From positions 1 through 19,113 of IMG/VR virus record IMGVR_UViG_2648501299_000003: 19,113 bases of DNA; one strand, 5' to 3'. The notes below the pieces were generated by a model. That model was not told where the DNA came from, ran no database searches, and saw nothing but the letters and a program-made list of their open reading frames with translations. This document shows, one piece after another, positions 2,869-8,596 of the stretch. Numbering within the stretch: the first letter of the stretch is position 1; each line of letters opens with the position of its first letter. The position numbers were made by a program, and so were the translations under genes. Source of the DNA: a virus. Its lineage: Duplodnaviria; Heunggongvirae; Uroviricota; Caudoviricetes.

Positions 2869-3473
2869 TAAGCAGCCGCTCCTTCTAATTCGTCTCGTCT
2901 GATGTTGTAAACGTCCTGCGCTTTTTGCTGCTCCGGTGTGCCTTCGAGCATCTTCCACGCTTTGGCGAACGCCTGTTTAAGCTCTTCCACGGTGTTTTTC
3001 TGCAATGCTGCGTCAGTGAATGCTTTTAGAACCTGTTCAGGTGTATGTGATGGTTTTGATTGCTTTGCTGCTGCGTTCTGCTGATGTTTATGCTCGTCTG
3101 TATCTGCATCTTTCGCATCATCAATGCCGAACAAACCATTGAGGCAATACTTGCGTGCATAAGAGCTTGTAGCGCCCGTAACTTGTGCAGAATCCATTCC
3201 TTTCTTGCTTTCTTCCTCTCGTGCAAGAGCGGTTGCTGTATGACTGTTTTCGCCATCGGTAATAGTTGCCGTGGCTTTCACGTAATACCGATCACCAATC
3301 AACACAACTTCATCGCTGATTGATAAAAACAGACCATTCAGTAACGGCTTAACGCCTTCAAGAATATCTTCGCAGCTTCTGTATTTATATTTACCGAATG
3401 AGTTGTACTGATTTTTTGGCGCGTTCAGATTCTCCTGAATAGCTGCCAGTCTTGCGTAAAATTCTTTGCTCAT
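2868..3473 (-). CDS. erf: Erf-family single-strand annealing recombinase (about 201 aa)
   Basis: MSKEFYARLAAIQENL...YARKYCLNGLFGIDD matches recalled P22 Erf family features; ATG at 3473-3471 (track ORF begins at an upstream TTG). Confidence 0.75.
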   Translation of the reverse strand: MSKEFYARLAAIQENLNAPKNQYNSFGKYKYRSCEDILEGVKPLLNGLFLSISDEVVLIGDRYYVKATATITDGENSHTATALAREEESKKGMDSAQVTGATSSYARKYCLNGLFGIDDAKDADTDEHKHQQNAAAKQSKPSHTPEQVLKAFTDAALQKNTVEELKQAFAKAWKMLEGTPEQQKAQDVYNIRRDELEGAAA

Positions 3474-3483
3474 ATGATTGTTC

Positions 3484-3654
3484 TCAGAATGGACACGGCA
3501 CAAGTAAATAACGCTGATTTAATACTTCAGTCTTTGCCGCATTTAAAAATACGCGAACACCTTCACGATCTCCCTTCTGGCGATACATTAACGCCTGCTG
3601 CGTGTACATGCGTCTCTGTAACTTGCTCTCCTTCACTGTGGTTGCAAGTGACAT
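3484..3654 (-). CDS. small hypothetical protein (56 aa), overlaps the next ORF in another frame
   Basis: ATG 3654-3652 preceded by a perfect AAGGAG 6 nt upstream (3660-3655); protein-like composition throughout; below the 60-aa track cutoff. Confidence 0.45.
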   Translation of the reverse strand: MSLATTVKESKLQRRMYTQQALMYRQKGDREGVRVFLNAAKTEVLNQRYLLVPCPF

Positions 3655-5032: not shown

Positions 5033-5166
5033 AGAAGATTTCCAATAATCAGAACAAGTCGGCTCCTGTTTAGTTACGAGCGACATTGCTCCGTGTATTC
5101 ACTCGTTGGAATGAATACACAGTGCAGTGTTTATTCTGTTGTTTATGCCAAAAATAAAGGCCACCA

Positions 5167-5708: not shown

Positions 5709-6092
5709 TTACCTCGCCGTCAGTTGTTTGGATTTCCGGTAGCCTGCCGCGTAAAGAGCTACATTTGGAAGACACACACCAGTTTCTGGTTGCTTATGTC
5801 CAAACTCATTCGCGTACACAATGGCCGCTCTCTCCAGATTGCGTCTGTATTCTTTCTGTTGCCAGATCACGTCCTGTGCCATGAACTTAATTGGCTTAGC
5901 GTCTTCTATGCGCTCAGGCGTTTCGTGAGTACCTTTAGCCTGAATCTGCGCTCTGCTTAGAGTAGGGCGGTGTAATACTTCTGAACTTATTGCTTCTTCG
6001 CGGGCCAGTACGCCGTTAGCTAATGCCTTTGCCTTTAAACGCTCACGACGACGAGAACGTGAATTGCCTTTGAACTGAGTTCTGCGTGTCAT
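5709..6092 (-). CDS. N: N-type transcription antitermination protein, P22 gp24-like (127 aa)
   Basis: Arginine-rich motif near N-terminus (GNSRSRRRERLKAKALANG) and C-terminus LPNVALYAAGYRKSKQLTAR resembling recalled P22-type N; ATG 6092-6090 with AGGAGG 5 nt upstream; boxB lies upstream on the same strand. Confidence 0.75.
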   Translation of the reverse strand: MTRRTQFKGNSRSRRRERLKAKALANGVLAREEAISSEVLHRPTLSRAQIQAKGTHETPERIEDAKPIKFMAQDVIWQQKEYRRNLERAAIVYANEFGHKQPETGVCLPNVALYAAGYRKSKQLTAR

Positions 6093-6220
6093 ATAGACCT
6101 CCTGGTGAACTTTGGCGGTGAATACAGCCGGGCGACTAACTCCGGTCGCGTAATCATTGCAAAGCGCCTCCGCCGAGAAGATTAGCTTCTGCATTCACCC
6201 CAAAGTTCACTTTGGTTATT

Positions 6221-6235
6221 GCGCTTTGTCAGCGC
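6221..6235 (-). promoter_or_regulatory. nutL boxB hairpin (P22 type)
   Basis: Minus-strand reads GCGCTGACAAAGCGC, a 5-bp stem with GACAA pentaloop, identical to the recalled P22 boxB; about 60-75 nt downstream of the predicted pL start; no canonical boxA (CGCTCTT) found nearby. Confidence 0.7.
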
Positions 6236-6303
6236 CGTAGATTCATATTCGAATCGTTGTATATTCACCGCCCTGGTGAGTAGTGCGTCCTGCTGATGGC
6301 TAA

Positions 6304-6332
6304 ATAGTACGATGTGTACTTTATTGAGTCAA
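6304..6332 (-). promoter_or_regulatory. pL-like early leftward promoter
   Basis: Minus-strand -35 TTGACT (6332-6327), 17-bp spacer, -10 TACTAT (6309-6304); overlapped by candidate operator dyads. Confidence 0.5.
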
Positions 6333-6378
6333 TACAAAATGTTCTAAATATGATTAGTTTTTTATAACGTTTTGTATT
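6306..6378. promoter_or_regulatory. candidate OL operators (three 15-bp dyads)
   Basis: AGTACgatgtGTACT (6306-6320, perfect dyad), AATACaaaatGTTCT (6331-6345), ATAACgttttGTATT (6364-6378); share half-site ANTAC-N5-GTANT with the OR candidates. Confidence 0.5.
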
Positions 6379-6509
6379 TTATGGAGTTATATTTTGCATG
6401 GTTGTGTGGCTTGGGAGGTGATCGAGAGATCTGAATTGCTATGTTTAGTGAGTTGTATCTATTAATTTTCAAATAAATACAATTGGTTATGTGTTTTTTT
6501 GGGGGGGTT

Positions 6510-6541
6510 AGGCAAAGAAAACCCGGCGCTGAGGCCGGGTT
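6510..6541 (-). terminator. intrinsic terminator ending the cI-cargo (pRM-side) transcription unit
   Basis: Hairpin with 8-bp stem 6520-6527/6534-6541 (AACCCGGC-CUCAGC-GCCGGGUU) followed on the minus strand by UUCUUUGCC. Confidence 0.6.
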
Positions 6542-6550
6542 ATGTAGGCA

Positions 6551-6652
6551 TTATGCGGCTTTTTTGGTGTGTGCTGACGAGCGAGCCAGAATCTCGTTAA
6601 TGAGAGATCTCAGGGTCATTGCATCTTTGTGCAGAGTGGACATGGTTTTCAT
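6551..6652 (-). CDS. small ORF (33 aa) between the cargo gene and the terminator
   Basis: ATG 6652-6650 with GAGG 7 nt upstream; MKTMSTLHKDAMTLRSLINEILARSSAHTKKAA; stop is 9 nt upstream of the terminator hairpin; below track cutoff. Confidence 0.4.
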   Translation of the reverse strand: MKTMSTLHKDAMTLRSLINEILARSSAHTKKAA

Positions 6653-6721
6653 TGCGTTTCCTCGGTTTATTTTATGGTACTAGCCTAGTTCAAATAGACT
6701 ATATGAAATCTTGATTTACTA

Positions 6722-7102
6722 TTAAGGCCATTGGGTTGGTGGAAGATCGTGGGTTTTTATCTGCGTATTTGCTTCCACACATTTATCATAGTCTAATTTC
6801 TCTACAGCAAGCAATAGTGATTCAGCATACATCAATCCTTGTTTGATGTTCATAACATTTATGCTTGCACTTGCGGCATCCATATCCTTTGCTGTCTCTA
6901 CCATGTGCTCAAAGCTTTGAGCAATAGAGTCAACACCGTTTTTCATCCTTGTAAACACTAATTTTAGCTCATCAAGGCTTGGATTCGTTAGATCATACAT
7001 CCCATGCATTCCATGGGCTTCGAATAACTCTGACAACGATCTAAGGGCGAAGTTCACAGAATCAATAACTTGGTCGTACTTTTTCTTATCAAGATCATTC
7101 AT
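6722..7102 (-). CDS. immunity-region cargo protein of unknown function (126 aa), rexAB position
   Basis: ORF directly downstream of cI on the same strand in a visibly AT-rich segment; no recognisable motif or TM segment; weak SD. Confidence 0.6.
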   Translation of the reverse strand: MNDLDKKKYDQVIDSVNFALRSLSELFEAHGMHGMYDLTNPSLDELKLVFTRMKNGVDSIAQSFEHMVETAKDMDAASASINVMNIKQGLMYAESLLLAVEKLDYDKCVEANTQIKTHDLPPTQWP

Positions 7103-7168
7103 TAAAAATATAACCTTTTAACTATTTGATATTGCTGCATTTATATCAATATATGCATTTCACATATA

Positions 7169-7828
7169 TCACCCAAACGTCTCTTCAGGCCATTGACTGG
7201 CGATAACCTTGCCTACAATGTTGCAGTTCTCATTGCATGGGATGATTGGAAACTGCGGATTAAGTGGTTGCAAAAACACTTGCCCACTATCTTTGATCAG
7301 TTTTTTGAATGTGAATTCATCGCCACCAAGTCTAGCGATACAGAAATCACCAGGATCAACAGGTTGTTCAGGGTCAACCAAGATTAACATTCCATCAGGA
7401 AAGCTTGGTTTCGATCCTGCCGGAGCTGTCATTGAGTTGCCTTCAACCTCAAGCCAGAATGCAGAATCACTGGCTTTTTTAGTTGTGCTTACCCATTTCT
7501 CCGCATCACCTTTGGTAAAGGTTCTAAGCTCAGGCGAGAACATCCCGGCCTGAACATGAGAAAAAACAGGGTACTCATATTGTTTTTTAACGGGGGCTGA
7601 TGAGTATTCGCCAACAGGTGAAAATGTACCGTCGTGGTTGAATGAGACGTTATTAATACCAAGGTACTTAAACACCACACCAATCTCGTCAAGAGATGGA
7701 TGACGAGATCCGCGCAACCAGTGGCCAATTCCACCCTGCGTCATACCAAGCTCTTCAGCTAACTTCTCTTGAGTTATGCTGAGTTCTTTCATTCTGGATC
7801 TAGCCAGTTCATACCATTTCATTTTCAT
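7169..7828 (-). CDS. cI: CI-type prophage repressor (HTH N-domain + LexA/S24-like autocleavage domain, about 219 aa)
   Basis: C-terminal about 135 aa ([22 protein letters not shown]...GNSMTAP...FTFKKL...[11 protein letters not shown]) nearly identical to recalled lambda CI; N-terminal HTH domain different; start at ATG 7828 (MKMKW) or 7822, upstream TTG-initiated track extension unlikely. Confidence 0.85.
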
Positions 7829-7837
7829 ACCCTCATT

Positions 7838-7912
7838 ATTACGCTCCGTACTAAAACCATCCATGCACAAGATGTATTTTTTCGATTGCATTCCAAAAGT
7901 ACATATCGTATT
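7838..7912. promoter_or_regulatory. candidate OR operators flanking divergent pRM/pR
   Basis: ATTACgctccGTACT (7838-7852) and AGTACatatcGTATT (7898-7912), plus a weaker middle site TGCACaagatGTATT (7864-7878); same half-site family as OL. Confidence 0.5.
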
Positions 7913-7914
7913 AT
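7886..7914 (+). promoter_or_regulatory. pR-like early rightward promoter
   Basis: -35 TTGCAT (7886-7891), 17-bp spacer, -10 TATTAT (7909-7914); overlapped by the 7898-7912 operator; cro RBS GGAGG at 7933-7937. Confidence 0.5.
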
Positions 7915-7940
7915 TGTTTCATGGTTACTATGGAGGGCAT

Positions 7941-8156
7941 ATGAGCAACCTACGAAAATATCGAGAGTCACTGAAGATCTCTCAAACAACCCTTGCTAAG
8001 GCTGTTGGATGCACACAGGGTGCTATCGGACATTGGGAATCTGGTCGTCGCTTCCCAGACCTTAAAACATGCCGTGCTCTTGTTGCGTGCCTAAACAAGT
8101 TCGGCGCAAAAGTCAGTCTTGATGACGTGTTCCCGCCGGAACACCAATCCGCTTAA
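7941..8156 (+). CDS. cro: Cro-like HTH (XRE-family) regulator (71 aa)
   Basis: ATG 7941 with GGAGG 4 nt upstream, divergent from cI; HTH-like QTTLAKAVGCTQGAIGHWESG; track ORF begins at an upstream alternative start. Confidence 0.8.
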   Translation: MSNLRKYRESLKISQTTLAKAVGCTQGAIGHWESGRRFPDLKTCRALVACLNKFGAKVSLDDVFPPEHQSA

Positions 8157-8167
8157 TAAGCGGATCC

Positions 8168-8212
8168 ACTCTTTTCACAATGGACATTCGTCCTACGTCG
8201 CTGACAAAGCGA
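8168..8212 (+). promoter_or_regulatory. nutR: boxA-like element plus boxB hairpin
   Basis: boxB TCGCTGACAAAGCGA at 8198-8212 (5-bp stem, GACAA loop, same loop as nutL); upstream CACTCTTTTCACAA (8168-8181) resembles boxA but the spacer is longer than in lambda. Confidence 0.55.
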
Positions 8213-8296
8213 GCCCCAAGATATCTGACCAACTAAGGCCATATGCGTTTCAACGCATACCTTTCAACTAACTATTCACTATTGGAAAATTAACAA

Positions 8297-8596
8297 ATGA
8301 CACAAGCAAGTTACAGCAAGCCAACACAGCGAGAAATTGATCGCGCAGAAACAGATTTACTCATCAACCTGTCAACGCTTACCCAGCGCGGTCTGGCAAA
8401 GATGATTGGCTGTCATGAATCGAAGATAAGCAGAACGGACTGGAGATTTATTGCTTCGGTCTTGTGTGCTTTCGGAATGGCATCAGACATCAGTCCGATT
8501 AGCAGGGCTTTTAAGTATGCGCTTGATGAAATCACCAATAAAAAACGCCCGGTGTGCAAGACCGAGCGTTCTGAACAAATCCAGATGGAGTTCTGA
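8297..8596 (+). CDS. cII: CII transcriptional activator (99 aa)
   Basis: C-terminus ...TNKKRPVCKTERSEQIQMEF almost identical to recalled lambda CII; gene begins with GCAA-N6-GCAA (pRE site on the opposite strand). Confidence 0.85.
   Translation: MTQASYSKPTQREIDRAETDLLINLSTLTQRGLAKMIGCHESKISRTDWRFIASVLCAFGMASDISPISRAFKYALDEITNKKRPVCKTERSEQIQMEF
8306..8319 (-). promoter_or_regulatory. pRE-type CII binding site (TTGC-N6-TTGC)
   Basis: Plus strand GCAAgttacaGCAA inside the 5' end of cII, the same arrangement as lambda pRE. Confidence 0.55.

Follow-up and report, generated by a model that had tools for sequence, protein, structure and literature searches.

Related immunity regions and their operators

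In the GenBank records of the Stx phage VT2-Sakai (Sp5; AP000422) and of the Morioka V526 Stx1-converting phage (AP005153), six 17-mers, three in each of OR and OL, are labeled "putative operator", and the promoters pL, pR and pRM are annotated as well. The putative operators of VT2-Sakai are OL1 TAGTACGATATGTACTT, OL2 CAATACAATTTGTTCTA and OL3 TACAACGCTTTGTATTT on the left and OR3 TATTACGCTCTGTACTG, OR2 ATGCACAATGTGTATTT and OR1 AAGTACATATTGTATTT on the right. The same strings are tabulated as predicted Sakai-type operators in PMC4587872 (Table S5); a full-text literature search with the exact VT2-Sakai strings found no paper. The only EMSA on VT2-Sa sites found in the literature searched was carried out with lambda CI, which bound them weakly, with an apparent Kd of 3.7-6.4 uM as against 0.2-3.1 uM on lambda's own sites (PMC10742460). 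As far as the work of Fattah et al., 2000 is represented in that same paper (PMC10742460), it found high C-terminal and low N-terminal similarity between the cI proteins of VT2-Sa and lambda, three OL sites in Sakai, and, at second hand, cross-immunity of VT2-Sa with lambda. Though these are the operators of one of the commonest Stx-phage immunity types, no binding experiments with the cognate repressor or Cro, whether of VT2-Sakai or of the phage described here, were found in the literature searched; repressor type is meanwhile being linked to levels of Stx2 production (bioRxiv 10.1101/2024.03.06.583675).

Among Stx phages, the literature searched names only the operators of 933W, with three OR and two OL sites, and of H-19B, with four OR sites, as experimentally characterized (PMC8065619). 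Both are lambdoid switches of the same kind as the one discussed below, controlling the early promoters (PMC8065619), though with different repressors, operator sequences and numbers of sites, and theirs have been binding-assayed. For the Salmonella phage epsilon34, which belongs to another, P22-like group, a putative operator consensus WTACRAWWTGTAT has been given as a prediction only; the N-terminal domain of its repressor shares about 50% identity with the VT2-Sa domain, and the authors of that work expected a different binding specificity (PMC2629481).

Layout of the immunity region and phage backbone

The whole stretch of viral DNA analyzed here, 19,113 bp long, is called the window. A lambdoid immunity region occupies positions 5709-8596, with the following genes and signals besides the promoters and operators listed further below:

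5709 to 6092, minus strand: N antiterminator (Pfam N_peptide), first gene of the pL operon, its start at 6092 lying behind AGGAGG
6221 to 6235: boxB-like hairpin
6520 to 6541: lambda-like t_imm terminator
7169 to 7828, minus strand: cI repressor, 219 aa; Pfam HTH_3 N-terminal and Peptidase_S24 C-terminal (E = 5e-28)
7941 to 8156, plus strand: Cro, 71 aa; Pfam HTH_3, recognition helix TQGAIGHWESG
8297 to 8596: cII (Phage_CII)

The gene order is that of VT2-Sakai/Sp5 (AP000422), Morioka V526 (AP005153), Nil2, 1717, 2851 and YYZ-2008, and the t_imm segment downstream of OL is like that of lambda. Two ORFs of 33 and 126 aa between t_imm and cI have no family match; the cargo between cI and OL is the 126-aa ORF in the window, whereas VT2-Sakai carries a 173-aa ORF (H0093) there. 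Nucleotide divergence from VT2-Sakai is about 10%, with substitutions in operator spacers and flanks.

Unlike VT2-Sakai, this is not an Stx phage. Its backbone is mEp234/HK106/Sf6-like, about half of it matching mEp234, HK106, IME10 and Sf6 at 95-97%, while the immunity module matches the versions found in Stx phages and E. coli prophages at 88-96%; IMG/VR contigs with a 100% identical cI N-terminal domain also exist. By these matches the mix of backbone and immunity looks like the usual lambdoid mosaicism, another instance of immunity modules moving between lambdoid phages, and the value of the assignment made below lies mainly in the correct annotation of a VT2-Sakai/Sp5-like immunity on a non-Stx backbone.

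The cI repressor and Cro

The C-terminal domain of cI shares 125 of 136 residues (92%) with lambda cI, and in an alignment to PDB 3bdn its Ala94-Gly95, Ser132 and Lys175 fall on A111-G112, S149 and K192 of lambda. The lambda-like cleavage domain that had been seen in this repressor in an earlier, sequence-only reading of the window is thus borne out, with the cleavage site and the Ser/Lys pair in place. The N-terminal domain is another matter: between residues 11 and 75 only 15 of 65 positions (23%) are identical to lambda, including 9 of 24 in the helix-turn-helix. The earlier description of this domain as "non-lambda" is right as to its divergence, but a foreign, non-lambda fold was rejected in view of the Pfam HTH_3 assignment, the 9/24 helix-turn-helix identities and the retention of the 17-bp operator frame; on these comparisons the domain is a diverged homologue of lambda's.

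Against VT2-Sakai (Sp5) the picture is quite different. BLASTP gives 200 of 217 cI residues identical (92%), with 17 amino-acid differences, and residues 17-45, which include the whole helix-turn-helix, are unchanged. In its N-terminal domain, cI shows 95% identity to the repressors of VT2-Sakai (Sp5), the Morioka V526 Stx1-converting phage, Nil2, 1717, 2851, YYZ-2008 and the PA-series phages, and 56-57% identity to epsilon34 and SPN9CC-like repressors. Cro matches its VT2-Sakai counterpart at 67 of 71 positions (94%), again with an identical helix-turn-helix. It is a homologue of PDB 28tn and an all-helical HTH_3 protein, unlike lambda Cro. The recognition helices of cI and Cro, TQGGIGHW and TQGAIGHW (Cro helix GCTQGAIGHWESG), are nearly identical, as would be expected if the two proteins compete for the same sites.

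Promoters and candidate operators

Three promoters are predicted in the two control regions:

6304 to 6332, minus strand: pL, with -35 TTGACT at 6332-6327, a 17-bp spacer and -10 TACTAT at 6309-6304; from the promoter scan, 9/12 matches
7886 to 7914, plus strand: pR, with -35 TTGCAT at 7886-7891, a 17-bp spacer and -10 TATTAT at 7909-7914; read from the sequence
7835 to 7863, minus strand: pRM, with -35 TGGATG at 7863-7858 and -10 TAATAAT at 7841-7835; from homology to the annotated VT2-Sakai maintenance promoter

A consensus promoter scan requiring at least 4/6 matches in the -35 hexamer detected pL but neither pR nor pRM, because their -35 hexamers match TTGACA at fewer than 4/6 positions; the positions of these two have been set by homology to the VT2-Sakai annotation. 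The placement of pL is that of the annotated major leftward promoter of VT2-Sakai (TTGACC-N17-TACTAT), and that of pR corresponds to its major rightward promoter (TTGTAT-N17-TATTTT). The predicted start of pRM would lie at or beside the cI ATG, so that the cI mRNA would be leaderless, as in lambda.

The sequence-only reading had proposed five to six 15-bp dyads of the form ANTAC-N5-GTANT at OL and OR. All six are present at the positions it gave, and each is listed here as a 17-bp site, which is the 15-mer with one more base on either side:

6305 to 6321 (17 bp): OL1, TAGTACGATGTGTACTT; 15-mer at 6306-6320, AGTACGATGTGTACT; a perfect dyad and an exact match to ANTAC-N5-GTANT
6330 to 6346: OL2, CAATACAAAATGTTCTA; 15-mer at 6331-6345, AATACAAAATGTTCT; 1 mismatch
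6363 to 6379: OL3, TATAACGTTTTGTATTT; 15-mer at 6364-6378, ATAACGTTTTGTATT; 1 mismatch
7837 to 7853: OR3, TATTACGCTCCGTACTA; 15-mer at 7838-7852, ATTACGCTCCGTACT; exact match
7863 to 7879: OR2, ATGCACAAGATGTATTT; 15-mer at 7864-7878, TGCACAAGATGTATT; 2 mismatches to the 15-mer, 1 to the core TACR-N3-YGTA
7897 to 7913: OR1, AAGTACATATCGTATTA; 15-mer at 7898-7912, AGTACATATCGTATT; exact match

Three of the dyads thus match the 15-mer exactly, two with one mismatch and one with two. The bases flanking the core are constrained as well, with a purine after TAC and a pyrimidine before GTA, and the core TACR-N3-YGTA takes in all six when one mismatch is allowed. Spacings between sites are regular, at 25-26 and 33-34 bp.

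The six sites align one-to-one with the "putative operator" features of AP000422 and AP005153, and all 12 half-sites are either the same as those of VT2-Sakai or different only at degenerate positions. The six dyads are very probably the operators OL1-3 and OR1-3 of a lambdoid immunity of the VT2-Sakai (Sp5) type, where repressor and Cro would act in the lysis-lysogeny decision of this prophage. To judge by the matches of the cI helix-turn-helix, Cro and the six operators, the immunity of the window belongs to that type, and the alignments identify its sites as already known VT2-Sakai-type operators, annotated and published as predictions. Since the same six sites stand annotated in VT2-Sakai, the finding is correct but ordinary. 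The distinct immunity specificity suggested earlier would probably hold with respect to lambda, from which both half-sites and N-terminal domain differ by sequence, although the weak lambda CI binding and the cross-immunity reported for VT2-Sa (PMC10742460) qualify it; it is in any case not a new one.

The genes cI and cro diverge from a 112-bp intergenic region whose three dyads overlap pR and pRM, and the second set of three related sites lies at pL, upstream of N. OL1 spans the -10 and spacer of pL, OL2 shares 2 bp with the pL -35, OR1 spans the -10 and spacer of pR, and OR3 those of pRM; OR2 adjoins the pRM -35, and OL3, like most of OR2, is not covered by any promoter hexamer. The overlap with the -10/-35 elements of pL and pR that had been described for the dyads in general is therefore found for OL1, OL2 and OR1, with OR3 lying on pRM instead; it does not extend to OL3, nor to OR2 with respect to the pR -35. 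OR2 is the weakest match of the six, its left half being CAC. That it is a weak match, and one without overlap with the pR -35, counts against the reading of all six as operators.

As in lambda, OL and OR each contain three 17-bp dyads. In the 17-bp frame the half-site of the window, W-A-R-T-A-C-R-N, shares A2, A5 and C6 with T-A-T-C-A-C-C-G of lambda and differs from it at positions 3, 4 and 7. Features of the lambda-type tripartite switch are present, namely the OR triad, the OL triad and the signature of a LexA-like self-cleaving domain, though imm-lambda proper is not matched, either in the lambda half-site TATCACCG or in the lambda N-terminal domain (15/65). Measured from the cI ATG, the centers of OR3, OR2 and OR1 lie at 17, 43 and 77 bp, as compared with 19, 42 and 66 bp in lambda. 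The center of OR2 is thus at a position where bound repressor could touch polymerase at pRM. OR1 lies one helical turn farther out, its spacing from OR2 being 34 bp as against 24 bp in lambda, and with this 10-bp difference a lambda-style cooperativity between OR1 and OR2 is an assumption.

Frequency of the motif by chance

Exact ANTAC-N5-GTANT occurs three times in the 19,113 bp, always in OL or OR, as against 0.13 expected, and none of 200 shuffles reached three; the search across the window that had been proposed as a check on the motif thus confines its exact form to the two control regions. At one mismatch or fewer there are nine matches where 4.1 are expected, a weak excess, five in the control regions and four elsewhere. 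Those four, at 5085, 5114, 6476 and 17810, have not been taken as operators, their number being just that expected by chance. The match at 6476-6490 sits in DNA that is also present in lambda, downstream of its OL.

The concern had been that the motif might be equally frequent elsewhere in the window. This is not so for the exact form, which is absent outside OL and OR. The looser core TACR-N3-YGTA with up to one mismatch is found 16 times in the whole window, where chance gives 15.3, so that the signal lies in location (and in the conservation described below) rather than in total count. The two control regions (212 bp) hold six core matches as against 0.17 expected (Poisson P ~3e-8). Their GC content is 23-37%; local shuffles of these AT-rich regions gave a mean of 0.33 core matches and a maximum of four, and 0 of 20,000 reached six. 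When every perfect dyad with arms of 3 or 4 bp and a spacer of 0-13 was counted, with no motif chosen beforehand, TAC-N5-GTA was the only one present in at least three copies, common to both regions and found nowhere else in the window. An inverted-repeat search with a seed of 6 returned nothing in OL or OR; as the arms of the dyads are only 5 bp long, this is uninformative and not negative evidence.

Conservation of the sites and alternative explanations

Annotated phages, E. coli and GTDB genomes and IMG/VR supplied homologous regions for a footprint alignment of 37 distinct OR and 55 distinct OL sequences. Variable columns make up 10 of 60 in the half-sites, 17 of 30 in the spacers and 61 of 117 in the DNA between sites (Fisher P of 1e-6 when half-sites are set against all other columns and of 2e-4 when they are set against the spacers, though the loci are closely related and the columns are therefore not independent samples). 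Close relationship notwithstanding, the pattern of columns reads as that of a dyad recognized at its arms. Among the 55 variants, the OL1 half-sites change at one position only, in a single variant; OL2 varies mostly in its spacer; and OL3 has spacer changes in 18, 7 and 2 variants with an invariant right half-site. The variable columns of OR3 are confined to the spacer, and OR2 varies in its spacer but never in its GCAC and GTA columns. The most divergent member, with an N-terminal domain 82% identical, keeps all six OR half-sites, with changes in spacers and flanks. Overlapping promoter hexamers could account for part of this conservation, a point that tells against the operator reading.

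Farther afield, the comparison took in 77 loci of Providencia, Proteus, Moellerella, Ignatzschineria and many Pseudomonas, whose repressors have N-terminal domains only 38-60% identical to that of the window. In 76 of the 77, the 170 bp upstream of that gene contain TAC-N5-GTA; its density is 6.6 per kb there and 0.2 per kb elsewhere in the loci. A Pseudomonas homologue of the repressor has the helix SQGGIGHW, and one from Providencia has VSKGAVGHWM, together with two TATAC-N5-GTATA sites. The TACR-N3-YGTA core is likewise that of the epsilon34 consensus WTACRAWWTGTAT (PMC2629481). The dyads are thus more than chance would give, keep their half-sites while their spacers change, lie on promoters, and co-occur with the DNA-binding domain in distant relatives.

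It could be argued that only the exact dyads OL1, OR1 and OR3 are true operators, and that OL2, OL3 and OR2, with their one or two mismatches, are chance look-alikes in AT-rich DNA, which would leave fewer than three sites per operator; the 933W switch does have only two OL sites (PMC8065619), and with one mismatch allowed the number of core copies over the window as a whole, like that of 15-mer copies outside the control regions, is no more than chance would give. We consider this unlikely, since the half-sites of these three are conserved while their spacers vary, six matches were never reached in local shuffles of the same AT-rich regions, the sites follow one another at regular distances of 25-26 and 33-34 bp, and the VT2-Sakai annotation has all three as operators; weak auxiliary sites are in any case normal in lambda, for instance OR3 and OL3.

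A functionally new immunity, heteroimmune to VT2-Sakai, is very improbable. The immunity region reaches only 88-92% identity with its Stx-phage relatives, with the 17 amino-acid differences in cI and altered spacer bases in several operators, and a divergence of about 10% in nucleotides might be imagined to have shifted the specificity; but cI residues 17-45 and the helix-turn-helix of Cro match VT2-Sakai exactly, and none of the 12 half-sites differs except at degenerate positions.

Very improbable too is the notion that the dyads serve as parts of promoters or as cis elements of another kind (-10/-35 hexamers, UP-like AT tracts, sites for host factors), with some other motif as the real operator, for though four of the six overlap promoter hexamers and the control regions have only 23-37% GC, the same dyad is kept in OL3 and most of OR2 outside the hexamers, dyad symmetry with a fixed N5 spacing is not a promoter feature, no other dyad is common to OL and OR, and distant genera whose promoters are unrelated pair this DNA-binding domain with this dyad.

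Proposed mode of action

With the six dyads taken as OL1-3 and OR1-3 of a VT2-Sakai-type switch, a mode of action can be suggested, in which binding, the order of affinities, cooperativity and activation of pRM are all presumed from the layout and by comparison with the established mechanism of lambda. Dimers of the 219-aa cI would place their recognition helices (TQGGIGHW) into successive major grooves of the 17-bp site W-A-R-T-A-C-R-N3-Y-G-T-A-Y-T-W. Repressor on OR1 and on OL1/OL2 would shut RNA polymerase out of pR and pL, while repressor on OR2, beside the pRM -35, could activate pRM, and occupation of OR3, over the pRM -10 and spacer, may provide negative autoregulation. Through its lambda-like C-terminal domain the repressor would dimerize, show pairwise cooperativity and, on induction, undergo RecA-stimulated self-cleavage, with Ala94-Gly95 as the cleavage site. 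Acting in the lytic direction, Cro (TQGAIGHW) would occupy these sites too.

A bolder suggestion, which we regard as doubtful, starts from the combination of a lambda-identical oligomerization and cooperativity domain with a VT2-Sakai-type DNA-binding domain. Given that the 17-bp operator frame is also that of lambda, the repressor could assemble with lambda-type repressors into mixed oligomers or DNA loops in polylysogens; if so, partial cross-immunity or cross-induction might arise between phages with formally different operators, and mixed oligomers could explain the VT2-Sa/lambda cross-immunity reported second-hand. A separate part of the same doubtful suggestion is that xQGxIGHW together with TAC-N5-GTA constitutes a transferable recognition code reaching as far as chromosomal repressors of Pseudomonas. 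A Pseudomonas homologue of the repressor has the helix SQGGIGHW, and one from Providencia has VSKGAVGHWM, together with two TATAC-N5-GTATA sites.

Operator spacing and relatives of the repressor

The predicted operators at both OL and OR are spaced differently from those of lambda. Measured centre to centre, OR1-OR2 and OR2-OR3, between cI and cro, are 34 and 26 bp apart, and OL1-OL2 and OL2-OL3, at pL, 25 and 33 bp, while the corresponding lambda distances are 24, 23, 24 and 20 bp; the OR1-OR2 spacing exceeds that of lambda by exactly one helical turn. Of these sites, OR1 and OR2 occupy 7897-7913 and 7863-7879, and OL2 and OL3 occupy 6330-6346 and 6363-6379.

Related dyads accompany distant relatives of the cI N-terminal domain. 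In prophages of Providencia, Moellerella, Proteus and Ignatzschineria (loci L011-L015), the cI homologues show 46-49% identity over this domain and carry the helix VSKGAVGHWM together with a lambda-like C-terminal domain; their cI-cro intergenic region contains, at about 3419-3497, two TATAC-N5-GTATA dyads, a putative sister variant of the operator predicted here. A LexA-family repressor with a recognition helix almost identical to that of our cI is widespread in fluorescens-group Pseudomonas (loci L016-L086), with a TAC-N5-GTA dyad lying about 85 bp upstream of its gene. One example is:

L017, 3426-4142: LexA-family repressor gene in a Pseudomonas genome

This gene adjoins a biotin-carboxylase-like gene, and the repressor may therefore be chromosomal rather than prophage-borne.

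Immunity module boundary and the cI-t_imm interval

The roughly 145 bp downstream of OL3 (6400-6545), including the t_imm hairpin, are nearly identical to lambda 35,660-35,825, whereas the adjoining OL operators are of an immunity type other than lambda's; this segment marks a boundary at which the immunity module has recombined. In lambda, the slot between cI and t_imm is filled by rexA and rexB; here the t_imm terminator (6520-6541) is lambda-like, and the slot that separates it from cI holds:

6722-7102, minus strand: 126-aa ORF
6551-6652, minus strand: 33-aa ORF
7149-7121: promoter-like TTGATA-N17-AATAGT, a short way upstream of these ORFs

The 126-aa ORF has no Pfam match, and its E. coli prophage version, WP_021539111.1, is annotated as hypothetical; it may be a cargo or exclusion gene that is expressed in the lysogen.

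Cro and hairpins

Cro (7941-8156) aligns over all 71 residues with PDB 28tn, an 82-aa "lambda repressor-like protein" (E = 1.5e-17), so the structure of a close homologue of Cro has been solved. Further hairpins are:

8147-8165: ATCCGCTTAATAAGCGGAT, perfect 8-bp stem, overlapping the cro stop codon
6221-6235, minus strand: boxB-like GCGCTGACAAAGCGC, between pL and N
8198-8212, plus strand: boxB-like TCGCTGACAAAGCGA, between cro and cII

The first is terminator-like by score. The two boxB-like hairpins match each other, and their positions are as expected for nutL (pL-N) and nutR (cro-cII).
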